Below, piece after piece: positions 21 through 37,217 of a stretch of DNA of 64,000 nucleotides. Position 1 is the first letter of the stretch. Each line of letters begins with the position of its first letter. The notes beneath the pieces are model-generated. The model saw only the letters and a list, made by a program, of their open reading frames with translations. It did not search any database and was not told the origin of the DNA. Position numbers and translations under genes: made by a program. Origin of the DNA: Moorena producens (GTDB lineage: Bacteria > Cyanobacteriota > Cyanobacteriia > Cyanobacteriales > Coleofasciculaceae); assembly GCF_965240435.1 (NCBI RefSeq), contig NZ_CBDEKO010000003.1. The stretch is one strand, 5' to 3'.

Positions 21-1598
21 TTGATGTCTCGACATAAGTACAAGAGATTAAAACACCAAATCACCTCAGTACCCAGCCGTTGGTACTTCTGCCTATCTTT
101 GGCTATTACCATACTGCTGGGATGGGTTGGTGTAGCAGCAGCACAAGATAGTAACACGAATAATTTCACTAACCTGTCTACTATCTGGTTGTTAGTTTCA
201 TCTTTTCTAGTCTTTTTTATGAATGCTGGCTTTGCCATGTTAGAAGCCGGGTTATGTAGACGGAGAAATGCGACTAATGTCTTGGCTAAAAATTTAATAG
301 TTTTCTGTATATCAGCCTTAGCCTTTTGGCTACTTGGCTTTGGCTTAATGTTTGGTGATGGCATCACTTACAGTTGTGTTCCAGGAGAAAATACTAGTTT
401 AAGTTTAGTGGGTCAAAAGGGGTTGTTTTTTAATCTTCCCTTTCCCCAATTTGGAAATCTTGGTTTTCCAGAATCAGGATTTAATTGTCTCAATAAAGAT
501 TGGTCTAATCACTCCTTTGCGGCTCTATTTTTATTTCAGTTAGTCTTTGCTGGAACTGCAGCCACTATTGTTTCAGGAGCTGTTGCTGAACGGGTTAAAT
601 TCTGGGCATTTCTGCTATTTAGTTTTTTCCTGGTTGGTTTTATCTATCCCCTAACGGGTCACTGGGTTTGGGGACACTATGGTTGGCTAGCCAAGGCGCT
701 AAAATTTCAGGATTTTGCCGGTTCAACTGTAGTCCATAGTGTTGGTGGTATGGCTGGCTTGGTAGGGGCTTGGCTACTAAAGCCACGACAAGGTCGTTTT
801 GGCTACAATTTAAGAACAGATAGATATGAAGGTCTCGAAACTGAAAAGTTCTCTTCCGATAATCTGGGTTTAGCCACTTTAGGCTGCTTAATTCTTTGGC
901 TGGGCTGGTTTGGCTTTAATGGTGGCTCAGCAAAGGATCTCGATTATGTAGCCAATACCATCACAACTACCATGATGGCAGCAGCAGCTGGTGGAATATC
1001 CAGCGTATTTTTTAGTCCAATTATCCTGGGAAAACCCAGTCTAGCCTCAATTATCAATGGTATTTTAGGTGGGTTGGTAGGAATTACAGCTTCAGCTGCT
1101 TTTGTAGATATCAGAAGTGCATTTATAATTGGCTCGATCAGCGGTATTTTTGTCCTTTTAGGGGAATATTTTCTACAAGTTTGGAAAATTGATGACCCCG
1201 TAGGTTCGGTTCCTGTTCACCTTTTCTGTGGATTTTGGGGAACGATTGCCTTAGGAATCTTTAGTAGCAATAGTTCTCTTTTGTACTCAGAACTTGATGT
1301 ATATGACGATCCATTATTACAAGTGTTGTGTCAGTTCTTAGGCTGGCTGATTATTATTATCGTAACAGCTCTATTGAGTTTAGTAGGTTGGCTATTAGTT
1401 AGCCTAATTTTATATTATGCAAGCCAGATAAATGAGCGGATTAGCGGCAAACAACGCCATCGGAAACAATTCCGTGAAACCCAATATTTTCAATTAGGAG
1501 AATTTATCTTAACTATTTTTGAAATTTCTCGTCGAGGGATAAGAGTATCTTTGGAAGAAGAAATCAGTGGTAGCGATGGAGTTTTTTATAATCCTTAG
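21..1598 (+). CDS. amt: Ammonium transporter (Amt/MEP/Rh family)
   Basis: 525 aa multi-pass membrane protein. Characteristic Amt motifs present (AGFAMLEAG, SGAVAERVKF, HSVGGMAGL, DDPVGSVPVH..GFWG). Translation read directly from the ORF. Confidence 0.9.
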   Translation: MMSRHKYKRLKHQITSVPSRWYFCLSLAITILLGWVGVAAAQDSNTNNFTNLSTIWLLVSSFLVFFMNAGFAMLEAGLCRRRNATNVLAKNLIVFCISALAFWLLGFGLMFGDGITYSCVPGENTSLSLVGQKGLFFNLPFPQFGNLGFPESGFNCLNKDWSNHSFAALFLFQLVFAGTAATIVSGAVAERVKFWAFLLFSFFLVGFIYPLTGHWVWGHYGWLAKALKFQDFAGSTVVHSVGGMAGLVGAWLLKPRQGRFGYNLRTDRYEGLETEKFSSDNLGLATLGCLILWLGWFGFNGGSAKDLDYVANTITTTMMAAAAGGISSVFFSPIILGKPSLASIINGILGGLVGITASAAFVDIRSAFIIGSISGIFVLLGEYFLQVWKIDDPVGSVPVHLFCGFWGTIALGIFSSNSSLLYSELDVYDDPLLQVLCQFLGWLIIIIVTALLSLVGWLLVSLILYYASQINERISGKQRHRKQFRETQYFQLGEFILTIFEISRRGIRVSLEEEISGSDGVFYNP

Positions 1599-3698: not shown

Positions 3699-3984
3699 AA
3701 TCTATGCTATGGTATTCAATCTATTGACACTGACTTGAATTAATACATCATAGCAAAGATGAGCAGTAAGCTTACCCCCGGCTGTTGGCATAGCCTACAG
3801 CCAGGCATAGCACGGGGGCTTTCGCCCAGGCAACAGGCGCGTTGGTTTTCAGTAGCCCTAGCTAACAAACGCGCTTAGATTCCCAATTAATTGAGCCTAA
3901 GGGTTAAGGGCTAAATCTCTAGGTCGGCTTACTCTACGAAAACCCGTAGCTTTTACAACCGATTCAACTCCCGGATGGCTCCAT

Positions 3985-4355: not shown

Positions 4356-4754
4356 GTGAATAAAGATGTATCAAGGGGTTTGGTTTACGAGTTCCAGCCT
4401 CATCAGATTATTTGCTTAGAGCATGACAATACTCGTTTATACGCTGAAGTCATCGAATTTGTGTCATCCCGACAAATGTGTTGGGTGCGTTCTATGGTAT
4501 TGGTGACCTTAGAGGATAGTCAAGAGCGTTTGGCAGCGGAACCCTCTGAACACCTCACTCTTTACGACCTACGCTCTGGACCGGATTTACTTTGGCCAGC
4601 GAGTTTATTACGACTAGCCTTAGATACTGAAGTAATTCCTCTGTTGGTTCGGTTAGATGACCCAGATGTCAATGTAGAAAGTGACCCTGCTGCTCGCCAG
4701 CAACTAAGTTATTTTATCTGTGCAGTTTGGCAAGCTTATCCGGACAAGTTCTAA
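4356..4754 (+). CDS. Hypothetical protein
   Basis: 132 aa ORF with no recognisable family. Confidence 0.35.
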   Translation: MNKDVSRGLVYEFQPHQIICLEHDNTRLYAEVIEFVSSRQMCWVRSMVLVTLEDSQERLAAEPSEHLTLYDLRSGPDLLWPASLLRLALDTEVIPLLVRLDDPDVNVESDPAARQQLSYFICAVWQAYPDKF

Positions 4755-6403: not shown

Positions 6404-9232
6404 ATGGCAATCACTGTAGAGGAAATATTAACACCAGACATCAACAGACCTGCCCGTTACTTAGGTAACGAGTTGGGAGCAGTCCATAAACCTTGGGGAA
6501 AAGCTGAGGTACGCTGGGTATTGACTTATCCAGAAGTATATGAAGTGGGCGCTTCTAACTTAGGCCATATCATCCTCTACAATATATTGAATTCTCAACC
6601 TAGGCAATTATGCGATCGCGCCTATCTACCCGCCCCAGACTTGGCAGCTAAATTACGTTCCACTCAAACCCCTCTGTTTGCTGTAGAGAATCGGCGACCT
6701 CTGACAGATTTTGATATTATTGGCTTTAGCCTTAGCTATGAATTAGGGGCAACCAACATCTTGGAAATGTTGGATTTGGCAGGAATTCCCCTGACCTGGA
6801 AAGACCGTGCTGAGTTTGATATATCGGAAATCCCCCTAATTTTTGCAGGTGGACAAACGGCGACATCGAATCCTGAACCCTATGCTGATTTCTTAGATTT
6901 TGTGGATCTTGGCGATGGGGAAGAATTGTTGCCAGAGATTGGCTTAGTAATCGAAGAGGGCAAAGCAGCTGGCTTAAGTCGAGAAGCGTTACTCCTGGAT
7001 TTGGCTCAGATACCAGGGGTGTATGTCCCCCAATTCTATGATATGACTGAGGATGGCTCAGTTAAACCCAACCGCCCTGATGTGCCGAAGCGGATTTTGC
7101 GGCGTGTGGCTACACCGATGCCTGCCTATGCTATTGGACTAGTACCCTATATCCAAACGGTTCATGACCGACTCAAGATCGAAGTGCGACGGGGCTGTAC
7201 TCGGGGTTGTCGCTTCTGCCAACCTGGGATGCTGACTCGACCAGCGCGGGATGTGGAACCGGAACAAGTGGTGGAAGCTATTGAACAAGGGATGCGTGCT
7301 ACAGGGTATAACGAGTTTTCTCTTCTATCCCTGAGTTGTTCGGATTATCTGGCTCTACCAGCGGTGGGGATGGAAATCAAAAATCGTCTTAAGGATCAGA
7401 ACATTTCCCTGTCCCTACCGAGTCAGCGGGTAGACCGCTTTGATGAGAATATTGCCAATATCCTAGGGGGAAATCGGCAGAGTGGCTTGACCTTTGCCCC
7501 AGAAGCAGGAACTCAGCGGATGCGGGATATTGTTAATAAGGGACTGACTAATGAAGAACTGCTCAGGGGAGTAAAGACGGCATTTGAGCAAGGCTGGGAG
7601 AAAGTCAAGCTCTATTTTATGATTGGTTTGCCTGGTGAAACGGATGTGGATGTGTTGGGGATTGCGGAAACGGTGCGTTGGTTGCAGCAGGAGTGCCGTG
7701 CTAAAGGGAGAAAAACCCTTAAGTTTAACATAACTGTTTCTAATTTTACCCCAAAACCTCACACCCCATTCCAGTGGCATTCCGTATCGACTTCGGAGTT
7801 TAAACGCAAGCAGGAATTGCTCAAACAAGTATTTGGTCAGATCAGGGGGGTGAAGGTTAATTACACCGATGTTCGGATTTCGGCCATGGAAGATTTCGTG
7901 GGACGGGGTGACAGACGCTTAAGTGCGGTGGTGCGCCGTGCTTGGGAATTGGGTGCAGGGATGGATGCCTGGATGGAAAGCTTGGATCGGGCATTTGCTG
8001 CTTGGGAAAATGCGATCGCTTCATCAGGTCTGACCTGGAAATATCGCCAAGTAGAAAGTGGCGAATGGAACGTGATGGCTGGTCTAGAAGAGTTGCAAGT
8101 TGAAAAGTTGTTCGCGAAGCGTGGCCAAAAGGCCAAGGTTGAAAGTTCAGAGCAACCAGCTAACCTACAACCAACTAACCTACAACCAACTAACCTTCAA
8201 CCAACTAACCTTCAACCAACTAACCTTCAACCAACTAACCTTCAACCAACTAACCTTCAACCTTGGCCAAAAGGCCACGCTACGGGAACAACCCTTGATG
8301 CCCTTGATGCCCTTGATGCTCCCTTGCCTTGGGATCATATTGATACGGGAATTGATAAGAATTGGCTCAAGGAAGATTTACAAAAGGCCTTAGATGCAGC
8401 AACAGTACCGGATTGTTCCTTTGATGGGTGTTCTCACTGTGGTGTGTGTGGGATTGATTTTGGTCATAATGTGGTGATTGACCCGCCGCAGATTCCGCAA
8501 TTTGCTGGTCACTTTAAACCCAATACTAATAAGGATCAGCGGCTGCGGGTTTGGTTTGGTAAGTTGGGGGATATGACCTTGTTGGGTCATCTGGATTTGG
8601 CAAGTCTGTTTGAGAGAGCAGTAAGACGGGCTTCACTGCCAATTCGCTATAGTGGGGGGTTTCGGGCTAATGCTCGGATTATGATTGCTAATGCATTGCC
8701 CTTGGGAGCGTCTAGTAGTGGGGAGATTGTGGAGTTTGAGTTAACTGAGAAAATGCCAGTTGAGGAGTTTAGGGAAAGGCTGGTGTCTCAGTTGCCTATA
8801 GAGATTCCGGTGTATGGGGTTGAAGCAGTGGATTTGAAGGAACCTGCTGGAACTCAGCTGTTGGAAAAGGCTGAGTATTTGATTCGAGTTGAGGCAATGT
8901 CATCGGTGTCTTGGGAAGAGTGGCAGGGTTGGATTGAAGCAATTAAGGGTAGTAAGGAAATTTGGTGGGAGCGGTTTACGAAGTCGGGTAAGAAGCAGTT
9001 GGTGAATTTATGCGATCGCTTATTTGACTTCGAGGTGATGGAACCCCAAAAACCCAAAGATGGTGAAGAGGAGGTTGCGGAATCTGGGGTAGTTTTGCGG
9101 TATGTGGGGAGTTGTTTGAATGATGGCACCATGTTGCGACCAGAGCATATTATTTATATGTTGGACCAGGTGGCGCAGCAGGAGTTTCGTTTGTTACATG
9201 TTCATCGCCAACGGTTGATTCTGCGGAATTGA
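6404..9232 (+). CDS. B12-binding radical SAM protein (TIGR03960-like) fused to radical-SAM-associated DUF2344/TIGR03936-like domain
   Basis: 942 aa. Radical SAM motif CTRGCRFCQPG is present. The N-terminal region looks like a B12-binding-type fold. The C-terminal third (DHIDTG...GHLDLASLFERAVRRASLPIRYSGGF) matches the partner protein that is commonly fused to it in cyanobacteria. The linker contains an in-frame repeat insertion (see the repeat feature at 8101-8285). Confidence 0.8.
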   Translation: MAITVEEILTPDINRPARYLGNELGAVHKPWGKAEVRWVLTYPEVYEVGASNLGHIILYNILNSQPRQLCDRAYLPAPDLAAKLRSTQTPLFAVENRRPLTDFDIIGFSLSYELGATNILEMLDLAGIPLTWKDRAEFDISEIPLIFAGGQTATSNPEPYADFLDFVDLGDGEELLPEIGLVIEEGKAAGLSREALLLDLAQIPGVYVPQFYDMTEDGSVKPNRPDVPKRILRRVATPMPAYAIGLVPYIQTVHDRLKIEVRRGCTRGCRFCQPGMLTRPARDVEPEQVVEAIEQGMRATGYNEFSLLSLSCSDYLALPAVGMEIKNRLKDQNISLSLPSQRVDRFDENIANILGGNRQSGLTFAPEAGTQRMRDIVNKGLTNEELLRGVKTAFEQGWEKVKLYFMIGLPGETDVDVLGIAETVRWLQQECRAKGRKTLKFNITVSNFTPKPHTPFQWHSVSTSEFKRKQELLKQVFGQIRGVKVNYTDVRISAMEDFVGRGDRRLSAVVRRAWELGAGMDAWMESLDRAFAAWENAIASSGLTWKYRQVESGEWNVMAGLEELQVEKLFAKRGQKAKVESSEQPANLQPTNLQPTNLQPTNLQPTNLQPTNLQPTNLQPWPKGHATGTTLDALDALDAPLPWDHIDTGIDKNWLKEDLQKALDAATVPDCSFDGCSHCGVCGIDFGHNVVIDPPQIPQFAGHFKPNTNKDQRLRVWFGKLGDMTLLGHLDLASLFERAVRRASLPIRYSGGFRANARIMIANALPLGASSSGEIVEFELTEKMPVEEFRERLVSQLPIEIPVYGVEAVDLKEPAGTQLLEKAEYLIRVEAMSSVSWEEWQGWIEAIKGSKEIWWERFTKSGKKQLVNLCDRLFDFEVMEPQKPKDGEEEVAESGVVLRYVGSCLNDGTMLRPEHIIYMLDQVAQQEFRLLHVHRQRLILRN
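8101..8285. repeat. Composite repeat element inside a CDS: inverted arms GCGTGGCCAAAAGGCCAAGGTTG / CAACCTTGGCCAAAAGGCCACGC flanking 7 x 15-mer (CAACCAACTAACCTT)
   Basis: Seen directly. The arms are perfect inverted repeats apart from the central AAAA. The 15-mer array encodes (PTNLQ)x7 in the reading frame of the radical SAM gene. It is followed by a 3 x CCCTTGATG repeat. Confidence 0.8.
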
Positions 9233-26240: not shown

Positions 26241-29200
26241 CTATTGCCACAATAACACTGAGGGCAGCTTACCAGAAGCTAAACGCAACAGCTCGTAACC
26301 AATCCCTGCTGTTCCCTGAAAGAAGCCAGGACTCCAGACAGAACTTGGCAAATTGTCAAACAGTTGATAACTTCCTGTTCGTCTTGCCCTCGCCACCACA
26401 TTTGTTCCTCGTTGGAGGGCGAGTTGCCGTAAATCAGGACGGGAAAATCCTTCGGCTGCAATCAACAGAACCTCAATCCGTCCGAAGTTACCGCAGCACA
26501 AATGGTCAATGCCTTGTAAGCCAAATTGCTGGGTCTTTTGCAACCCTACCTCAATGTCCTGCTGAATATCTGCCGTATCCAGCATGGGCAATCCACCCAG
26601 TCGTCCTAGGGCAATCCCCGGTGCTCCATGACACCAACTCACCATAAAGCCCGGTTGCCCCTTGTCCTGCTGGAATTCGCGGAAATCCGGCCAATTACCT
26701 GCCTTCTCAGAAAAAACACTGCGTTCGTAGGCAATACCTTCTTCTGCTGCTTCACGGTAACGATGGTCTTGGGTGACAGCATACAGGCGCAGCAAAGCAT
26801 AGGCAATTCCAGCCGCACCGTGGGAGAACCCCGTGAGGGGCTGTTCCCTGAGAGTTTGCCATGCCTTGGGAGACCCCTTGATACTCACGCGCTGCTGTAA
26901 TAGATGGTTAGCACAAGCTTGAGCTTTCTCTAGAACGTCTGGATCCTGAGTAGCTTCGTACAAGGGTAACAGACCCAAGATTGCTCCGGCAGCTCCTCCC
27001 ATCACATCCAGTTGTTGATCAGTCGCAATCAATTCAGCAGTAATACTCTTGACAAAAAGCTCAGCATCCGCAAGTAATGCTGTATCCCCCAAGAATTGGC
27101 TGACTTTTGTGAAAGTATAGATGATAGAACTAACTCCGGTAGCTCCTCCAATTCCCAAATTTCTCGCCAGTCTCTGACGAGTATCAGCCAGCTGAGTTAG
27201 CTTTCGTAAACGCTGTAAAGCTTGCAAAGCTAATTCACCAAATTCTTGACGACCCCTTACCCAATCCAATGCTGATAGAAACAGGGCAATTCCACATTTG
27301 CCATCGTAGAGGGAGTTGCCCAGCAGCTGTAGTTGAAACCGTTCAGCTTTAGAAACAAACCCCATGCCAATCCAGTTAACACAGCCATTTGGATCTGGAA
27401 TTGCTTTGGCCTGGATTTCCCTAGCGATCGCATCAGCCTCTTGAATCAACTGATCCGGTGTCAGCGGTGGTAGGGACTGTACTTCCCATGCCCCGGTTTC
27501 TCCAGTTGGTTTTCGTGCCACCCGTGCATAAAGAGCTTGCCGGATCAAACAGAGTTGTTGCCCTAGGTTTGTTTCACTGAATTGCTGTAGCTCGGTGATC
27601 ACCTGCTCATAACTCGGTTGCTTAAAAGCCTGGGGAATAGTTTCTCCGGTAGGTAGGGGTAAAGCCTGACTAGCAGAGTTGCCCTGAAAGTATGGAATAT
27701 CGAGTTGTGCCATTACCTGCAACTCAGCAGCTAAGATCGGCCAAGCTTTTGGTTTCTGCTGATCAACCAGGAACCCTCGACTGATGATGTCTAGCTCAAG
27801 ACTGTAATCAACTCCATCTTGGCAGAATTCAGGGGTCAAGGTTTTCTGCAAAACTGTCCGATACACTTTAGTTGACCGAAAGATAAACCGGATGGGTTGG
27901 TCTTGCAGGGCTGCTAGTGGTCCATCAACAGCAAGCATTGCCTCTCCCTGGCCGATCACGAAGCGATACACCTGCTCAAACCCCTCAACCAGCTGCTCCA
28001 CATAGTCGTTAGGAGACAGGATCTGCTCACCAAGGTAAGACACATTTTTCGACCTGGGTCGAGTGATATTATCGTAGCCCAGATGCATATGATCAGTGTT
28101 GATAGCCTTCCAGCAGCGAGCTTTATGAGCTTTATTAGAGCTAGGTTGGGACTCAATACTTCCCAAACCGCTAATGTCATAGGCAATGCTGCGATCGCTA
28201 CTAAAATCCCATCGGGGCAACAACCCCGTCCGCAAGACAGAATGGTAAAATTGTTGCCCTGCAGTGGATTCCATCTCTTGGGCATCCAGGGAATTGTCTA
28301 TCAGTTTGACTTCCGGGTCAAGGAGAGTTTCTAGATCCACCAACACCAAATGCTCACCACTCGCAATCAGGTTTTGATAGTGGCAGTCTATTCCCCGCAA
28401 AGCATAAAGCCAGCACAATAGCATCCCAGCGCGCTGATAAAACCGTTGCGCCGCTGCTTCATTTTCGCAGGGCTGATGTTCCACATACTCAACCCAGCCA
28501 TACCCACTTTGATTGAGAACTCGTAATACTTTGAATTTGAGCAGTTCTTCGTGTTGATTGCACCAAGCCAACAGGTTATTAAACGCTACTTCCAGCCCTA
28601 AATCTTTGGGTTTGTAGACTACCTTGAGTCCAGAATCAAAGGTGAGTACAAACACTGAGCGTCCTCCATTGTGGGGGTCCGATAACCCTGTCTTAATATC
28701 AGTGACCTGACCGAGACCTTTCAATGATGTTGTTCCTTGCTCCCCTTCAGGGGTTTGGGTTTTACCAAACATTTGATCAATGGCTTCATAGTCCCAGCTC
28801 AACCGTTGCAGTAACTCTACCGTTGCCTCTAGCCAAAGGTTGATACAGGTAGCAACCAATCGCCCCAGCACCGGATAGTTTTCGACAAGGGTAAGGTAAC
28901 CTTCTCGCAAGTGTTGCTCGACAAAGGCATCATAGAAAGTCGTTTGACCATTGCCCTGGAGAGCTGGTAGAAGTAAGTTCAGCAATCTATATCCACCTGG
29001 ACGGGCTTTGGAGAACTCAGCATTCAGTGTCTTAGCACAAAGCGTTGTTACTTGTTGCAGCAGAGTGCGCTCTAGACAACGGTAGGCTGTTTTAGATAAC
29101 AAAGCATTGGCTTGACCTACCACTGGCAAGGCAAAATCCTTGAACCTTTCCTGTAGCTTTGCTCTGGCCACCACCACCACAGGTAGCAGTAGATCTTCAA

Positions 29201-29546
29201 AGGGAAGAGGATTGTCTAGATCAATTGGCAAGTCAGGATAATCCTGAGGCTGAAAGCCTTTAGCGGTTTCCATTACCTGTGCTAGGGTGTTTGCCCACTT
29301 GGGTAGTTGTTCAGCAACTAAACGCACAGTACCTAGGCATGGACGAACTTTGTCTATATCTAATCCATCCCACTGTAAGCGTCGCTGAAACTTGTCCCAG
29401 TTTCCCTGAGCCACCACATTGCACCAGCGCTCAAGTCTTTGTGATACTTGTGCTTCACTGTTGCTATTAAGCTCCGGTACGAATTGCTTGATATCAAGGC
29501 GTTCCCACCAGAAACTAGCTTTAGCAACTATTGATCTACCTAACAA
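26241..29546 (-). CDS. lanM: Class II lanthipeptide synthetase LanM (ProcM-like, CCG zinc-ligand type)
   Basis: 1101 aa. N-terminal LanM dehydratase domain. C-terminal LanC-like cyclase with WCHGAPGIALGRL and HLCCGNFGRIE (CCG rather than CHG, as in ProcM). Confidence 0.85.
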   Translation of the reverse strand: MLGRSIVAKASFWWERLDIKQFVPELNSNSEAQVSQRLERWCNVVAQGNWDKFQRRLQWDGLDIDKVRPCLGTVRLVAEQLPKWANTLAQVMETAKGFQPQDYPDLPIDLDNPLPFEDLLLPVVVVARAKLQERFKDFALPVVGQANALLSKTAYRCLERTLLQQVTTLCAKTLNAEFSKARPGGYRLLNLLLPALQGNGQTTFYDAFVEQHLREGYLTLVENYPVLGRLVATCINLWLEATVELLQRLSWDYEAIDQMFGKTQTPEGEQGTTSLKGLGQVTDIKTGLSDPHNGGRSVFVLTFDSGLKVVYKPKDLGLEVAFNNLLAWCNQHEELLKFKVLRVLNQSGYGWVEYVEHQPCENEAAAQRFYQRAGMLLCWLYALRGIDCHYQNLIASGEHLVLVDLETLLDPEVKLIDNSLDAQEMESTAGQQFYHSVLRTGLLPRWDFSSDRSIAYDISGLGSIESQPSSNKAHKARCWKAINTDHMHLGYDNITRPRSKNVSYLGEQILSPNDYVEQLVEGFEQVYRFVIGQGEAMLAVDGPLAALQDQPIRFIFRSTKVYRTVLQKTLTPEFCQDGVDYSLELDIISRGFLVDQQKPKAWPILAAELQVMAQLDIPYFQGNSASQALPLPTGETIPQAFKQPSYEQVITELQQFSETNLGQQLCLIRQALYARVARKPTGETGAWEVQSLPPLTPDQLIQEADAIAREIQAKAIPDPNGCVNWIGMGFVSKAERFQLQLLGNSLYDGKCGIALFLSALDWVRGRQEFGELALQALQRLRKLTQLADTRQRLARNLGIGGATGVSSIIYTFTKVSQFLGDTALLADAELFVKSITAELIATDQQLDVMGGAAGAILGLLPLYEATQDPDVLEKAQACANHLLQQRVSIKGSPKAWQTLREQPLTGFSHGAAGIAYALLRLYAVTQDHRYREAAEEGIAYERSVFSEKAGNWPDFREFQQDKGQPGFMVSWCHGAPGIALGRLGGLPMLDTADIQQDIEVGLQKTQQFGLQGIDHLCCGNFGRIEVLLIAAEGFSRPDLRQLALQRGTNVVARARRTGSYQLFDNLPSSVWSPGFFQGTAGIGYELLRLASGKLPSVLLWQ

Positions 29547-30409
29547 TTATTATTTCTAATCCTGCCATTAGGCATAATAGTGTTACAGAAAATAGCATCA
29601 TTTAAATCAGCCTTAGCTAATTTAGCCTTTTTAAGATTAGCATGGCTCAAATTAGCCTCACTCAAATCAGCATCATGAAAGTCAACACCTTCTAAATTGG
29701 CATAACTTAGGTTGGCTGCTCTCAAGTTACTATTATAGAGTCTTGCACCACTCAAATTAGCATGACTAAGGTTAGCGCCAGACATTTCCTCATAACCTAG
29801 GTTAATATTTTTCAAGTCCAAACCGCTTAAGTCAGCCTCTGCACAAATAAAGATCGCTCCTGCTTTTGATGGGTTAAATCCAGTGGGAAACTCAGTGCAT
29901 GATGTATAGATAGCTTTGGTAAAATTTATACTACTCAGGTCAGCTTTTTTCCAGCCATCAACCCCTAGCATACGGGCATAACTGAGGTTAGCATTGCTCA
30001 GGTCAGAATCACCTACGTAAACCTCACATAAGGTAGCATAACTAAAATTGGCATCCCTGAGCTTAATACCAGCCATATAAATTACAGATAAATCAGCATA
30101 ACTCAGATCAGTACCACTAAAGTCGCAGTTTTCCAAGGTTGATTCAGATGCTACGAGATGACTCAAATTAGCCTTAGTGAAGTTGGAATTTTCGATAGTA
30201 GTTTCGTATAGATAAGCATTCCTCAAGTTAGCATGACTTAGATCCACATCATCCCAAGTGGCTTCCTCTAAATCAGCATTACTCAAGTCCGCATAATTTA
30301 GACAAACACCCTTGAGGTTAGTACTTTTCAAGTTAGCCTTTTTCAAATTAATACCAGAAAAATCTTTTTCACCGGCTTCGTAGCGTTTTAGGAATTCATC
30401 ACGATTCAT
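29540..30409 (-). CDS. Pentapeptide-repeat protein
   Basis: 289 aa of A(D/N)LSxANLxxA-type pentapeptide repeats. The stop overlaps the LanM start by 7 nt, which suggests translational coupling. Confidence 0.8.
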   Translation of the reverse strand: MNRDEFLKRYEAGEKDFSGINLKKANLKSTNLKGVCLNYADLSNADLEEATWDDVDLSHANLRNAYLYETTIENSNFTKANLSHLVASESTLENCDFSGTDLSYADLSVIYMAGIKLRDANFSYATLCEVYVGDSDLSNANLSYARMLGVDGWKKADLSSINFTKAIYTSCTEFPTGFNPSKAGAIFICAEADLSGLDLKNINLGYEEMSGANLSHANLSGARLYNSNLRAANLSYANLEGVDFHDADLSEANLSHANLKKAKLAKADLNDAIFCNTIMPNGRIRNNNC

Positions 30410-32879
30410 AGCATGCCCCTTATTTGTTTAATCTTAACTAGTAATAATCCTGATTATACTCTAAAAAAAAATATTAGTATTTTTATCAGTTTGGTTAATC
30501 ATTAATGGTTAATAGTTGTTAGTACTTAATGCTATCAAGCCTAATATAAAGTGGCCTCATGCCTAATCGTTAATGTTCCAATCAGCAATCACATCTCTTA
30601 CCCCAGGGGTTTGATGAAGTTGCTACCAACTCAATCAAACAAACGTACTCATAACGAGTTTGGGTTATTTTGGCAGAGCAGAAAAAGAAAGGTTAGGTTA
30701 GTTTTATAGCGACTTCCTTTGCTGTCAGGTTACAAAATAGTTGATTGTTGATTAGGCTTTAGGGATAAACCATGAACTATAGCAATCCGACATAAATCGT
30801 GAGACTTCCTGATCCGAAGCTCCCTTGGTAAAACAATTTTGCTCACAACTGACTTGGGATTTCTATAGGCACAACACTGTATATAAATACCTGAACATAA
30901 ATGCTGTTAACTGTGTTGAAACCCTTAACGTTGCTCAACCCATTGATGGTCTTAGTTTGCCATTACCTATGCCTTTATCCTATCAGTCAACTTTAATTGT
31001 GTCTGACGACTTACTACCTATGAAGGCAACTTAGTAATCTATTTTGATTAGACCCAAACTATGACTACAACTGAGCGTAAAACAGAGAAGAAAATGGAAG
31101 TGCCTAGGACAACTAGTGAAGTTATTCGCATCAAGCCCCAACAGTTTATTCATGTTCTAGACAACAACACTGGTGTTACCCGACTGGAGGTTGGTCCTCA
31201 AACCATTACCCTTCGCGATCACGAGCGGCTGATATTAAAACCTGAACCGATGATTATTGTGCCGCCTCGATATTATTGTGTGGTTGCTAATCCATTACTC
31301 CGGGATGAAGACGGTCAACCCATTGCTGATCAGCATGGTCAAATTCGACTGCGCTACGGTGATCTGGAAATTCGTTTTGCGCAAGATCCCTTTCCCCTTT
31401 ATCCAAACGAGAAACTAGTAGGGGATGTCACGCAACTGGCAGTAGTCGAGACCAATCAAGCACTGCGTCTGAGAGCAATTCGGGATTTTACCGATACGGT
31501 TACGAGAATAGTTGATGGAGAAACCCAGACTGAAACAATTAACCGTTTAGCAGGTGATGAATGGCTGTTTGAAGGACCTGGAACTTATATTCCCCGGGTG
31601 GAGGTTGAAGTAGTTGAGACAGTGACAGCTGAGGTGATTAAACCTAACCAAGCCTTACACCTGTTAGCACGGCAAAATTGCACCGATCGTCAAAGGAATA
31701 GACGTAGAGCAGGTGAAGAATGGCTGGTTAGAGAAGAAGGAGCCTATTTACCTGGTGTAGATGAAGAAGTAATTGGCATTATTAATGCTTACATTTTGAC
31801 AGAACAAAAAGCATTACATCTGAAAGCTAAACGCACCTTTACTGATATTTTTGGTCGTCAGCGTAAAGCTGGAGATGAATGGTTGGTCACCTTTGAAGAT
31901 GCAGAAATTCATATTCCCGATGTTTATGAAGATGTAGTGGGAGAAGTTACGATTACTACCCTCAGCGATCACGAATGGTGTATTGTGCTTGACCCGATTG
32001 ATGAATCTGGTAAACCTCAGCTCGGTATGCGAGAAGTGCGCCAGGGTAGAACATCATTTTTCTTGCATCCTGGTGAGTCCTTAGAGAATGGTATCCAAAA
32101 CATCTATGTTCTCAGTGAGCTAGAAGCACTGTTGCTTCGAGCCAAAGAAGCTTTTAATGAGGGGGAAGGTGACCAGGTCATTACTCATCAACCAGGGGAT
32201 TTGTGGATGATTGCTGGGCCACAAGATTATATTCCCCCTGTGGAAGTGGAAGTGGTTGAGAAGCGTCAAGCCATTCCCCTCGATAAGAATGAAGGTATCT
32301 ATGTGCGTAACATTCAGACTGGTGAACTCAAACTGGTCGGTGGTCCTCAGGCTTATATGCTCACTCCCTATGAGAAGCTTTGGGAAAAAGAACTGCCATC
32401 GGTAGTTGAGGAACTGTTGATGCAAAAAATAGACCCATTGTCTGGGCGTGGTCAGCATTCTCTAGCTGGGGGCGATCAGTCGGAGCGAAAATCAGGAGTG
32501 CGCCAAGGTCTATACCAACGGGATAAGACTAGAGCAGTTGTGTTTCATATTCCTCAAAATGCTGCTGTGCAGCTCCATGATTATAAAAACAGAACTGCAA
32601 GAACTGTATTTGGACCGGACTTGGTGATGCTCGAACCAGATGAAGCCTTTACTGTGCTTTCTTTGTCAGGTAGCAAGCCCAAACGACCTAATGTCATCAA
32701 ATCCTTAGCCTTATTACTCGGTCCTGATTTTATGACCGATATCTTTACCGTAGAGACAGCAGACCATACCAGATTGCAGCTACAACTGTCCTATAACTGG
32801 TACTTTGATGTGGACAGACACGATGAACAGACTGCAGCCAGACTGTTTCAAGTACCTGATTTTGTGGGAGATACTTTTG

Positions 32880-33399
32880 ACACTCCCCGGCCTGAAGGCG
32901 CGGGGATTCCTAGATCAACGAGCCGCCTTAAACCGTCGAGTTCCCATCTATGACGCCGCCAAAAATGGGACAATACTTAACCGAGAATCCGTCAATACCA
33001 AATTCCTAGTTAATTCACGACAGACCCAGAGGGCAGTTCTCCTTAGGCGTTTAACTACTTATTGGAAGTGCCTTATTAAGTCCGTTTCCCTTCCTTTCGT
33101 TTGGTTTCGGTGTGCCCCACCGTACCGTTTTCTCGTCCATAGTGATTCTTCTGGGTTCACACACCAACTGTTAATTGATGATTGGGTTTTTAAAGAGGAC
33201 TTTCCCTTCCCTCTAGACATTACTACTTTAAGGTCGATAAGTTACGGGTCTCTCTCCCGGCTCAGCCTACGGTTTTTCAGCCTGTATGTATCTTGATTAT
33301 ACGATAAATATTCGTGTGTGTCCATAGTTGCTCTTTTTTTTATAGGTTCCTAATAGAAAGCCGTCCTATAAGGACGGGGCTTTAAACCCAAATCTTTTG
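32880..33399 (+). mobile_element. 520-bp non-coding insertion in MVP gene, flanked by CTTTTG direct repeats
   Basis: No coding potential in the MVP frame. Hairpin near the 5' end (CCCCGG..CGCGGGG) and near the 3' end (CCGTCCTATAAGGACGG). The 6-bp direct repeat CTTTTG occurs at 32874-32879 and 33394-33399. Removal restores the frame (520 mod 3 = 1). Confidence 0.45.
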
Positions 33400-33837
33400 G
33401 TAAAGCGATCGCATCCCGAGTGCGGGGTGCTGTAGCAGGGGAAAAATTTGATGAATTTCACCGCAATTCAGCCCGGATTATCCGACTGGCGGTGTTTGGC
33501 ACTGATCAAGAAGGTCATATTCGAGATGAATTTCGTTTCCGAGCCAATAACCTAGTAATTACCAATATTGACATTCAGTCAGTGGAGCCAGTGGATGAAG
33601 AAACCTTAAGGAGCTTGCAAAAGTCAGTGCAGCTAGCGATTCAAATTACCACTGATGCTCAAGAAGCTGCTGCACGCCAAGATGCAGAACGGATTGAGCA
33701 AGAAGCGAAAGCCAGGTTGGAAAGGCAAGTAATTTTGGATCAAAGTGGAGCAGAAGCAGAACGCAAAAAACTTCTAGAATTACAGGCAGAAAATATAGCC
33801 ATTGAGTCTACAGGTCAAGCAACAGCAGAAGCAAGAG

Positions 33838-34101
33838 GTGACATACTCCCACATTGAATCGAAGATTACAGTGTGGGCTTCTTACCAACTCCACCCAACG
33901 GTTCGGATACTCGGTAAGCTTTATTAACGATACAGGATGCCCCTCCGCACCGGAACAATACAATAAGTTCTATTTTTTAATTAGTAGGTGGCGGTTAGCT
34001 CTTATTTGGTTTTCCCTACTATATCTAGTATAAACGATTTTTATCCTGTCCGCAATTCATCTGACACTCATGCTGCGCATGTTCGTTGTGAGGCATAAGA
34101 G
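33838..34101 (+). mobile_element. 264-bp non-coding insertion in MVP gene, flanked by AAGAG direct repeats
   Basis: Direct repeat AAGAG at 33833-33837 and 34097-34101. Hairpins CCCACA..TGTGGG near the 5' end and CATGC-TGC-GCATG near the 3' end. Removal restores the MVP frame (264 is divisible by 3). Confidence 0.45.
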
Positions 34102-34596
34102 CGGATGAAGCTAAGGCTGAAGCGGCTCAGATTCAAGGACAATTAGCAGTTAACTTGGCTCAGCAAGAAGCCGAGGCGGCTCGGATTCGCAATCAAATCG
34201 AGTTAGCTCAACTCAAAGCACGTCAGGAAGCTGAATTAGCCCATCAACAAGCCTTTAATAACCTAGAGATTGCCAAAGCTGAGCGTATGGCTCACATTAA
34301 GAGTGAAGAATACCGACAGAAAGTAGAAGCAATTGGTCCTCAAACCATTCAAGCGATCGCACAAGCAGGTCCGGAAATGCAGGCAAGACTTCTAGAAGCA
34401 CTTGGTATCCAGAGTGTTTTGATTACCGATGGCAAAAATCCCATCAATCTATTTGGTGCAGCTAATGGTCTGATTACTCCCCCAACTTCTAACTAAGTGC
34501 ATCTGTGTCTGCTGCGCGCTGTGTCTGCTGCGTGCTGGCACGGCTTCCCTTATACACAGATACACCGATAACCCAACCCTATCTTACCGGTCTATC

Positions 34597-34818
34597 TTAC
34601 CGGTCTATCTGTGTCGAAGGTTGAGAGTTGAGGTGTTGCTCGACTTTGTTAATTACCCCTAGTACGAGAAACAGAGCAAATACTACAGCAACACCGATAG
34701 CAGTCCACTTGAAAAAAACTAACTTTGGCCGACCTTTAGCTGGATAACCACAACTGAGGCAAATTTCATCGTTGGTGCTGGTTAAAGACCCACAAACGTT
34801 ACACTGTTCTAAAGCCAT
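34597..34818 (-). CDS. Small zinc-ribbon membrane protein (hypothetical)
   Basis: 73 aa with CxxC...CxxC (CNVCG..CLSCG) followed by one TM helix. Confidence 0.4.
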   Translation of the reverse strand: MALEQCNVCGSLTSTNDEICLSCGYPAKGRPKLVFFKWTAIGVAVVFALFLVLGVINKVEQHLNSQPSTQIDR

Positions 34819-35015
34819 AGTTCTTGGAAATCTCTACCGTCATAAGATAACTGAAAAAATTATCAGGTGGGTAGAGTACTTTGAGCCTTCGTTACCAACT
34901 CCTTGATGCCCAAGTTGCTTACTTCAGGTGAGGTAAGTTACCAAAAAATCAGGGCACAAGGGAAAACCTCCAGGTATGAAGCCTGTGACCAATAACCGAT
35001 TACCCATTCCTAATC

Positions 35016-37217
35016 ATGGCCTCAGGACACAATTTAATTCTGGATCTAACCACAGTTCTAGGGGCTTCTGCTTTGGGAGGCTACCTTGCCAATCGGCTAC
35101 GTCAACCTGTACTTTTAGGCTATTTAGCCAGTGGTTTATTGGTTGGTCCGTTTGGTCTTAAACTCGTAGGCGAATTAGAACAAGTCAAATCCCTAGCTGA
35201 AATTGGGATTGTTTTTTTGTTATTCACCTATGGGGTAGAGTTTTCTCTATCCCAGCTTAAACGATTTAAAGATATTGTCCTGAAAGGTAGTTTACTGCAA
35301 ATTAGTCTCACTATTACCCTAGTTGCAGTTTTAGCCAATGGACTTGGTTGGGTTGACGGATTTACTCCGGGAATAATGCTCGGATTCATCATCTCCCTTT
35401 CCTCCACCTCAGTAGTTCTTAAAACCCTGATGGAAAGAGGAGAAACCAATACCCTTCATGGTCAAGTGATGCTGGCAATTTTGATTGCTCAAGACCTTAG
35501 TTTAGGTCTGATGTTAGCCGTCATACCCGCCCTTCAGCAGCCCTCAGATATTGGCTCAGCTTTAGTTGTTGCTTTACTCAAAGCATTGGTGTTTCTAGCT
35601 GCTGCTCTAGCAGCCGGTCGCTGGATAATTCCCCATCTCATTAAATATATTGCCCGCACTGAAAACAGTGAGCTATTTCTGATCACAGTAATTGCCCTGT
35701 GTTTAGGGATTGCTTTGATTACTGCTGGACTTGGTCTATCCGTTGAAATGGGAGCATTTGTGGCAGGATTAATGATGGCTGAAATTGATTATGCTGACCA
35801 AGCCGTTGCCAAAATAATCCCCCTTAAAGACACATTTGTATGTCTATTTTTTGCATCCATAGGAATGCTTATTGAGCCGGAAGTGCTGCTCGATAACTTC
35901 AGCATAATCATCGGTTTAGTGATGTTAGTGATGGGAGGAAAAGCAGCAATCATCCTACCGATTGTACTGAAATTTGGCTATTCCTTTAAAACTGCTTTTA
36001 TTGTTAGTTTTGGTCTCAATCAAATTGGAGAATTTTCCTTTGTCTTAGCAGTGGTTGGCTTTGAGTTAGGATTTATCACTAGGGATCAGTATCTACTCCT
36101 GGTCGGAACCACAGCCATTACCCTAGTTCTGACACCCATGTGGCTGAGATGGTCTCCCCGAATAGCAGACCACCTGGTAAATCTGCCGTTTCTGAAAAGC
36201 TACCTGCGTCAGTTTCAGGGTACTAAAGCTTTGTCAATTCCAGAAACGATTTGTAATCATGTGGTAGTGGCTGGCTATGGACGAGTTGGGCGAGTACTGG
36301 TCAAAATCCTGCGCAATCAAGGGCATGAGGTCCTAGTGATTGAAAATAGCGAAGCTGCTATTCAACGCTTGAGACATGAGAAAATTCCCTATATGTTTGG
36401 GGATGCTCACTCGGAACTGGTGTTAGAAAAAGCCCATCTAGAAAAAGCTAAAGCCCTAGCCATTGCCCTACCCGATCCTGGCAGTACCCGCTTGTTGCTC
36501 AAACGTGCCCTCAAGTTTGCCCCAGGACTGGATATCGTGGCTCGTTCTCACAAAAATAGCGAAATTGACCTACTTACCCAGTTAGGGGCGCGGGAAGTAG
36601 TGCAACCGGAATTTGAGGCAGCATTGGAAATGGGAGCCCATGTGCTAGTAGCACTGGGAGAAACCCAAGGTATGATTCAGTCGGTGATCAATCGGATTCA
36701 CCAAGACCGCTATTTGAGTGTACGACCTGAACAAGCTACCTATTCAAAGCAGCAAGAGATCACTGATGTTGCTGAAGAACTCCACAGTGAGTGGGTCACC
36801 TTGAGTCAAACTTCCCGTCTAGATTGGGTAACTCTGGCAGCAGCAGATATCCGTAACGTGACTGGGGTAACAGTTTTGACAATTCAACAAGGTAATGATA
36901 CTATCAACTACCCACAAGGTAAGATGACGTTGCGTTCAGGGGATCGATTGCTCGTTGTTGGGGAACCGGAAGAATTAGCAGTGTTTCGAGACTGGATCGA
37001 AAGTCGCAGTTTCCTTAGTGAGGGATCTAAGCATTGGGTAACTTTGGTAGAGAATTCAAGTTTGGTGGGTATGAAGCCAATTGATCTCCAGCATCAATAC
37101 AATGTGATGGTTCAGGCGTTGCGTAGACAAGGGAAACTATATAATCCGGTGGATGAAGCTGGAGTATTGCAGGTGGGGGATTGTGTGTTGTTGTCTGGGG
37201 AATGGGATGAGGACTGA
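35016..37217 (+). CDS. CPA2-family cation:proton antiporter (Kef/NapA-like) with RCK (TrkA-N/TrkA-C) domains
   Basis: 733 aa. N-terminal 12-TM Na+/H+-exchanger-like domain, then a Rossmann motif VVAGYGRVGRVL (TrkA-N) and two TrkA-C-like segments. Confidence 0.8.
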   Translation: MASGHNLILDLTTVLGASALGGYLANRLRQPVLLGYLASGLLVGPFGLKLVGELEQVKSLAEIGIVFLLFTYGVEFSLSQLKRFKDIVLKGSLLQISLTITLVAVLANGLGWVDGFTPGIMLGFIISLSSTSVVLKTLMERGETNTLHGQVMLAILIAQDLSLGLMLAVIPALQQPSDIGSALVVALLKALVFLAAALAAGRWIIPHLIKYIARTENSELFLITVIALCLGIALITAGLGLSVEMGAFVAGLMMAEIDYADQAVAKIIPLKDTFVCLFFASIGMLIEPEVLLDNFSIIIGLVMLVMGGKAAIILPIVLKFGYSFKTAFIVSFGLNQIGEFSFVLAVVGFELGFITRDQYLLLVGTTAITLVLTPMWLRWSPRIADHLVNLPFLKSYLRQFQGTKALSIPETICNHVVVAGYGRVGRVLVKILRNQGHEVLVIENSEAAIQRLRHEKIPYMFGDAHSELVLEKAHLEKAKALAIALPDPGSTRLLLKRALKFAPGLDIVARSHKNSEIDLLTQLGAREVVQPEFEAALEMGAHVLVALGETQGMIQSVINRIHQDRYLSVRPEQATYSKQQEITDVAEELHSEWVTLSQTSRLDWVTLAAADIRNVTGVTVLTIQQGNDTINYPQGKMTLRSGDRLLVVGEPEELAVFRDWIESRSFLSEGSKHWVTLVENSSLVGMKPIDLQHQYNVMVQALRRQGKLYNPVDEAGVLQVGDCVLLSGEWDED

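Follow-up and report, generated by a model that had tools for sequence, protein, structure and literature searches.

In IS608 of Helicobacter pylori, an element moved by a Y1 TnpA through 'peel and paste', TTAC is both the target and the site of left cleavage (CL) and TCAA is the right cleavage site (CR), while the guide tetranucleotides AAAG (GL) and GAAT (GR) lie immediately 5′ of the hairpin feet (PMC5934647; PMC3201880). The omega RNAs of TnpB are encoded at the tnpB 3′ end and the right end of the element (PMC8612924), and the flank beyond the right end takes the role of guide (PMC8612924, PMC10055086). Protein-less derivatives of such elements, called PATEs, have been described in Haloquadratum (PMC3119063) and, with omega RNAs, in Geobacillus stearothermophilus (Meers et al., PMC10055086); fusions of IS605/IS607 elements to group I introns are known as IStrons (bioRxiv 10.1101/2023.11.20.567912). 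Homologues of the eukaryotic vault protein MVP have been described previously in cyanobacteria (bioRxiv 10.1101/872010; PMC3762200). Here we report on a 64-kb stretch of DNA from Moorena producens (the window) in which the gene for one such homologue is interrupted by two inserts, E1 and E2. We conclude, with a probability that we put at roughly 0.9 and that covers the mode of insertion as well as the origin, that E1 is a non-autonomous deletion derivative of an IS608-type IS200/IS605 element, that is, a PATE. This class is already described, and E1 represents neither a new kind of element nor a new mechanism.

We determined the limits of E1 by DNA alignment to two syntenic loci that lack the insert, L006 and L008 (95-98% identical), whose contigs are syntenic with the window. 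By blastn against these loci, the window resolved into three collinear blocks, 30001-32876, 33400-33837, and 34109-36000, and adjacent blocks abut in the orthologue. The insert accordingly spans 32877-33399 (523 bp), and the empty site reads GATACTT/GTAAAGC in both loci (slashes mark junctions throughout). An earlier note, made from the letters of the window, had described a hairpin-ended insert of 520 bp that splits the MVP gene; the foreign segment and the hairpin near each end stood, but the limits had to be moved. Removal of 523 bp restores the peptide ..GDTCKAIAS.., which is the same in P0001, P0002, P0119, and every orthologue and which aligns without a gap to ..GDACKAIAS.. of human MVP. 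The 520-bp deletion (32880-33399) proposed in that note also keeps the frame and restores collinearity with the eukaryotic protein, but its junction, ..DTFGKAIAS.., is found in no orthologue. Indeed, our first rebuild, which used the 520-bp removal, carried one extra residue at the junction (DTFGKAIAS versus human DAC-KAIAS), and this excess suggested that the 520-bp boundaries were slightly off.

The MVP frame (ORF 31061..32953) reaches a stop inside E1. When both E1 and E2 were removed, an intact MVP ORF of 879 aa emerged, with no stop, no indel, and 18 substitutions in comparison with P0001. Since the gene has no lesion beyond the two inserts, both insertions are recent. Against human and rat MVP, the rebuilt protein gives an end-to-end alignment (E 5e-293, residues 18-877). 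Intact orthologues include P0001 (98% identity) and P0002 (96% identity), and the closest named protein match is an MVP fragment from Moorena (Moorea) sp., P0119 (99% identity). E1 is missing from the same site in close relatives and constitutes a presence/absence polymorphism among near-identical Moorena strains. The MVP gene is presently inactivated by E1 and E2 jointly. Its earlier description as a pseudogene holds insofar as the ORF is broken twice, but the 879-aa frame shows no other damage in comparison with P0001. The coordinates of the gene segments and of the elements are collected in Table 1.

Table 1 Features of the interrupted MVP gene and its two inserts (window coordinates; strands are those of the window)
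Feature	Coordinates	Strand	Basis
MVP homologue, segment 1	31061..32876	+	Syntenic alignment, restored ORF
Flank 3′ of the E1 right end, AAGTATCTCCCACAAAATCA	32857..32876	-	From sequence; together with TTAC recreates the empty MVP site
E1, 523-bp protein-less element, very probably an IS200/IS605-family (IS608-like) PATE	32877..33399	-	Empty-site alignment; end homology; no tnpA/tnpB remnant
Omega-RNA-like module plus right end, 249 nt	32877..33125	-	Alignments A1 and A2; covariance model R1
Interior peculiar to the E1 copy	33126..33295	-	No blastn match in window, plasmid collection, or related loci
Promoter-like TGGACA-17-TATAAT, reading into the element	33296..33324	-	11/12 consensus positions
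Left end: CAAAAGATTTGGGTTT, AAAG (guide GL, 33380-33383), imperfect palindrome CCCCGTCC-TTATA-GGACGG (33361-33379)	33361..33399	-	
TTAC, target and left cleavage tetranucleotide (GTAA on +), flank directly 5′ of the left end	33400..33403	-	
MVP homologue, segment 2	33400..33837	+	Syntenic alignment, restored ORF
E2, another PATE-like insert (273 bp) in the MVP gene, unrelated to E1 and in the same orientation	33838..34110	-	
MVP homologue, segment 3, including stop codon	34111..34496	+	Syntenic alignment, restored ORF

Several features of the gene and its surroundings were recorded alongside. P0002 (863 aa, from L008) is an otherwise intact MVP orthologue in which 16 residues (..PLDKN[EGIYVRNIQTGELKLV]GGPQ..) are missing in comparison with P0001 and the window. 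The homologue is named 'colicin uptake protein' in public sources; it has more than 2,500 relatives at E <= 1e-50, and the named ones among the top 120 are mostly cyanobacterial. The neighbours in the window encode a LanM-type lanthipeptide synthetase, a pentapeptide-repeat protein, a Kef-type antiporter, and ribosomal protein L3, and an HIP1 octamer, GCGATCGC, lies at 33406-33413; the window is cyanobacterial. The lanthipeptide synthetase (1,101 aa, 26241-29546, minus strand; DUF4135 and LANC_like in the orthologue) is encoded just upstream of the MVP gene, and its gene is kept in L006, while other genes take its place in L008.

A sensitive blastn search of the insert against plasmids matched just the two ends of E1. 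For the low-coordinate end (32874-32934), the matches were to Stanieria pSTA7437.05, where they cover the 3′ end of tnpB and sequence downstream of it, and to an unannotated Dolichospermum site. For the high-coordinate end (33352-33404), an Aphanizomenonaceae plasmid and Microcystis NIES-2481 p1 matched in the stretch that lies just upstream of tnpB. The elements in these four taxa have common ends, ..TTAC/C.. on the left and ..GGGGAGTGTCAA/ on the right, with unrelated flanks beyond them. In every plasmid match, tnpB lay opposite to the query strand, and we therefore oriented E1 on the minus strand of the window, which is its top strand, so that its left end falls at 33399 and its right end at 32877.

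Read in this orientation, the left end is laid out as ..GCTTTAC/CAAAAGATTTGGGTTT-AAAG-CCCCGTCC TTATA GGACGG.., with 20 nt separating the hairpin foot from the cleavage point and a DNA-fold z of -2.5. The right end is laid out as ..GAAT-CCCCGCGCC TTCA GGCCGGGG-AGTG-TCAA/AAGTATCTCC.. and comprises GAAT (GR, 32906-32909), the palindrome CCCCGCGCC-TTCA-GGCCGGGG (32885-32905), AGTG, and TCAA (CR, 32877-32880). On the plus strand, the two hairpins read CCCCGGCC-TGAA-GGCGCGGGG at 32885-32905 and CCGTCC-TATAA-GGACGG(GG) at 33361-33379. The alternative offered in the earlier note, an IS200/IS605-type palindrome-associated element, is thus supported in detail, except that the sites that matter are TTAC and TCAA of the minus strand and not CTTTTG. 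The TTAC beside E1 is presumably also the TAM for a TnpB.

Related ends recur in Moorena genomes. One scan of species-representative genomes found a 34-nt core of the left end to be identical in 10 loci: M. producens 3L and M. bouillonii PNG have three apiece, two Moorena MAGs have three between them, and Microcoleus sp. has one. In Microcoleus (L019), a full tnpB comes directly after the left end, and its product shares 58-63% identity with the annotated TnpBs. At seven Moorena loci, the element is complete but protein-less and measures 396-497 bp. These seven have in common with E1 the left end, the position of a σ70-like promoter, the 23-nt module start, the block GGTACGGTGGGGCACACCGAAACC, and the right end GGGGAGTGTCAA; M. 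producens 3L and M. bouillonii PNG each contain three of them, and none has the interior of E1. The promoter-like site of E1, as compared by eye, occupies the position of TTGACA..TATTAT in the relatives, a position that is taken by the promoter in the tnpB elements. TTAC directly precedes 15/15 related left ends (14 loci), with unrelated sequence upstream, and all related right ends finish in GGGGAGTGTCAA and then give way to unrelated sequence. The E1-type ends can be written as ..TAAAGCCCCGTCCTTATAGGACGGCTTT.. (left) and GAATCCCCGCGCCTTCAGGCCGGGGAGTGTCAA (right), and 15 left ends and 11 right ends retain the subterminal palindromes. A metagenome scan with the right-end hairpin of E1 recovered an identical hairpin in L021, at a tnpB 3′ end. 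Altogether, tnpB with E1-type ends was present in L001, L002, L005, L019, and L021, and no copy carrying tnpA was seen among the loci examined.

The longest minus-strand ORF in E1 is 53 aa. Searching with four cyanobacterial TnpB proteins by tblastn revealed no tnpB remnant in E1, E2, or the window. A tblastn search with IS608 TnpA, a query validated at 99.4% identity to the annotated tnpA of an H. pylori copy (L024), found no tnpA in the 64-kb window or any fetched locus. Because its ends are shared with tnpB elements and with the Moorena relatives, and remnants of tnpA and tnpB are missing, E1 is placed among the PATEs. The BLASTN search for further copies suggested in the earlier note, run on the window, gave no second copy of E1 or E2. 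No second copy of the E1 interior was found in the window, plasmids, genome loci, or metagenome loci searched, so this variant may be single-copy.

Next to its right end, E1 retains a segment resembling an omega RNA. The module starts with GTACGGTGGGGCACACCGAAACC, a sequence that in L001 and L021 is located at the tnpB ORF's 3′ end; there, the GGTACGG... block lies inside the last tnpB codons and runs on to the right end. A consensus fold of 11 relatives, with E1 left out, has compensatory changes in 15/31 pairs. The covariance model R1, also built without E1, has a sole match in the window, 32877-33125 on the minus strand (68.1 bits, E 7e-17, model positions 1-144). The module of E1 measures 249 nt, versus ~144 nt in the relatives, and the ~105 extra nt are located at two variable stem-loops. 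The 23-nt start is identical to the Moorena consensus. R1 aligns only the two ends of the module confidently and the middle is expanded and poorly aligned, so that the module may be defective. We regard it as possible, though we lean slightly against it, that the omega-RNA module is still functional. If it is, a transcript of the module that runs into the flank would carry AAGTATCTCCCACAAAATCA as its guide, and such an RNA would direct cutting of the empty site (TTAC + AAGTATCTCC...) by a TnpB provided in trans, thereby favouring retention of the insert.

The second insert, E2, has a start that is ambiguous by 2 nt (33836-33838). Its empty site in L006 and L008 is GCAAGAG/CTAAGGC, where the orthologues read ..AEAR/AKAEAA.., and it is flanked by TTAG (34111-34114; CTAA on the plus strand). 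Its right end reads GAAG-CCCACA..TGTGGG-AGTATGTCAC/. Oscillatoria nigro-viridis pOSC7112.02 carries a tnpB element whose 3′ end has 87% identity to this right end, and the tail AGTATGTCA agrees with the right end of IS608. No homologue of the E2 left end was found, and the hairpin and guide there could not be fixed; a GAAC/TTAG pairing is possible but speculative. We also considered E2 as a GT-AG spliceosomal-type intron (33838-34101, 264 bp, with an AAGAG repeat), and rejected this, as the orthologues give a true deletion of 273 bp and the right end resembles a tnpB element. The two inserts lie on the same strand, and the GC skew of the window (+0.02) is too weak to call it leading or lagging.

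Other observations were made in the course of comparing the relatives. In Microcystis NIES-2481 p1 (L005), the E1-type right end (1249-1281, minus strand) lies ~520 nt past the annotated tnpB stop (tnpB 1800-2933), much farther from tnpB than in Stanieria; this may reflect an extra insert or a mis-set stop. Several Moorena PATEs contain small GC-rich palindromic inserts that are missing from sister copies, e.g., GCGATGCAGCGCGGTCTTGGGGGTTTCCCCCATGAGCGACTGCATCAAGACA (L011, ~4430-4480; L010, ~1360-1460, minus strand; L012, ~7795-7850; L015, ~780-805, minus strand). The motif GTTCGCG.AGCGTG recurs beside other elements (L012 and L016), and these inserts look like a second, still smaller repeat family nested in transposons. 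M. producens 3L also has a tnpB of Oscillatoria type (34% identity; L011, 2369-3678), whose right end, GAATCCCCATCCCTGAGGCGGGTGGGGAGGTTCAA (~3860-3897), is a few hundred bases from a PATE of the E1 family, indicating that several IS605-type end families coexist in Moorena. Finally, a 50-nt stretch of the Klebsiella pneumoniae plasmid pKpN01-CTX (L023, 3001-3050), shared by ~30 other Klebsiella plasmids, is 84% identical to the E1 right end. It is carried by IncF plasmids, and the gene table of PLSDB, which is incomplete, lists no gene there; it may be an unrecognised IS200/IS605-type end.

We propose the following scheme for E1, drawing on the biology of IS608 and ISDra2. A Y1 HUH TnpA encoded elsewhere in the genome would have released the top strand in the form of a single-stranded circle and inserted this 3′ of a TTAC in single-stranded DNA, the AAAG and GAAT guides pairing with TTAC and TCAA to position cleavage. 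The junction of the circle intermediate would read TCAA/CAAAAG (..AGTGTCAA/CAAAAGATTT..). The same TnpA could excise E1 precisely and so restore MVP. As neither a Y1 tnpA nor tnpB is present in the window, or adjacent to such ends in the fetched Moorena loci, the mobilising enzyme in this genome is assumed. A bolder scheme, which we consider unlikely, would make E1, and perhaps E2, a live 'guide-only' transposon. Here, its own promoter would drive an enlarged omega RNA with the MVP flank as guide. In this filamentous cyanobacterium, MVP alleles that are still uninterrupted on sister copies of the chromosome would then be cut by a TnpB whose gene lies elsewhere. The insertion would in this way be driven to fixation even though the vault gene is lost, and TnpA would still be able to excise the element precisely, making MVP switchable on and off in a reversible manner.

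One alternative is still live, namely that E1 did originate as an IS608-type PATE but is now an inert relic, immobile and with a dead omega-like module, that persists as a scar on the way to pseudogene decay. We give this appreciable weight, although somewhat short of even odds. The two large expansions in the module, of which only the ends align well to the family model, fit such a fossil, as do the interior that is peculiar to E1 with no sister copies found, the lack of tnpA and tnpB within the window, and the second disruption in the same MVP gene. Against it, TTAC, AAAG, both palindromes, GAAT, and TCAA, which are all that the IS608 TnpA requires, are intact; the module start is unchanged from the Moorena consensus; and the host gene is free of further decay, so that the insertion is young. 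A classical MITE, a cut-and-paste DDE derivative with terminal inverted repeats and the 6-bp CTTTTG as target-site duplication, would suit the small, non-coding E1 and the CTTTTG copies at 32874-32879 and 33394-33399, but this reading, one of the two given in the earlier note, is excluded by the empty site, which contains no CTTTTG and hence nothing that was duplicated. The repeat arises because the element starts with CAAAAG and ends with ..TCAA beside a flank beginning with AAG (minus strand). Moreover, the ends of E1 are not inverted repeats of each other, its imperfect palindromes being subterminal (20 nt from the left terminus and 8 nt from the right), and the relatives have no flanking repeats, with TTAC on one side only.

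Equally far-fetched is an intron of group I, group II, or IStron-like type that is removed from the MVP transcript and leaves the gene working. The frame is restored upon removal and IStrons exist as a class, but the covariance-model scan that had been recommended matched no intron family, in line with the previous failure to see group I or II signatures: Rfam 15 at gathering scores gave no match across the whole window, and at E <= 10 over 32600-34400 it gave only two chance-level matches (snoM1 and bxd_1), both outside E1. The RNA fold of the whole insert was no better than that of shuffled sequence on either strand (z = -0.4 and -0.95), the plus strand included. In addition, the promoter-like site, the omega-like module, and the TTAC/TCAA code are all antisense to MVP, and the polymorphism among near-identical strains is what would be expected of recent transposition. 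An intron is therefore excluded as well.

The MVP gene of this genome is thus not degraded but interrupted by two young single-strand transposon derivatives, and the chief value of this finding is in annotation: automated callers would report fragments of 630 aa, 145 aa, and 113 aa instead of one 879-aa MVP gene. Furthermore, the Moorena family of protein-less elements that keep a guide-RNA segment could be used to test for TnpB and TnpA acting in trans.

Among known mobile elements, bacterial MITEs, which derive from DDE transposons (e.g., the cyanobacterial Nezha), have terminal inverted repeats and target-site duplications. They resemble E1 in being small, non-coding, and able to interrupt genes, and are multicopy as a class, whereas E1 lacks both terminal inverted repeats and a target-site duplication. 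Like E1, IStrons have ends of IS605 type, and genes can tolerate their insertion; however, no ribozyme was detected in E1, and E1 is antisense to the gene that it interrupts. Like E1, the PATEs described to date are IS200/IS605 derivatives that encode no protein and in which both ends and, in many cases, the omega-RNA region are retained; TnpA is presumed to mobilise them and TnpB to serve them in trans. E1 differs from them in belonging to another sequence family, found in Moorena and other cyanobacteria, and in having an unusually long omega-like segment and an interior of its own. The tnpB-only (IS1341-type) elements of cyanobacteria, such as those of Microcoleus sp. BR0-C5 (L019), Stanieria pSTA7437.05 (L001), and Microcystis NIES-2481 p1 (L005), have the left-end core (34/34 nt in L019), the TTAC flank, the terminus GGGGAGTGTCAA, and homology over the segment that joins the tnpB 3′ end to the right end. 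Between the ends, they contain a gene for a TnpB of 377-405 aa, where E1 has ~170 nt of unrelated sequence.

For IS608, we compared E1 with a real copy, that of H. pylori pUM157 (L024), which has annotated tnpA and tnpB. Its left end reads TTAC/CCAAAACTAACGCCTT-AAAG-CCCCTAGC.., that is, TTAC, 20 nt ending in AAAG, and the CCCC-hairpin; its right end reads GAAT-CCCCTAGCTTTAGCTATGGGG-AGTATG-TCAA/, that is, GAAT, the hairpin, and AGTATGTCAA. E1 differs in lacking tnpA and tnpB, in its cyanobacterial host, in the sequences of the hairpin stems, and in the distance of the right cleavage site from the hairpin (10 nt in IS608 versus 8 nt in E1). By contrast, all four tetranucleotides are in corresponding places, the AAAG-CCCC arrangement and the 20-nt distance between hairpin foot and left cleavage point are the same, and neither element has a target duplication or terminal inverted repeats. 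The likeness extends to the left end ..TTAAAGCCCC.. and to the right-end tail ..GGGGAGT(AT)GTCAA. The locus thus provides a tidy natural case in which the IS608 recognition code (TTAC/AAAG and TCAA/GAAT) is kept between Helicobacter and cyanobacteria.
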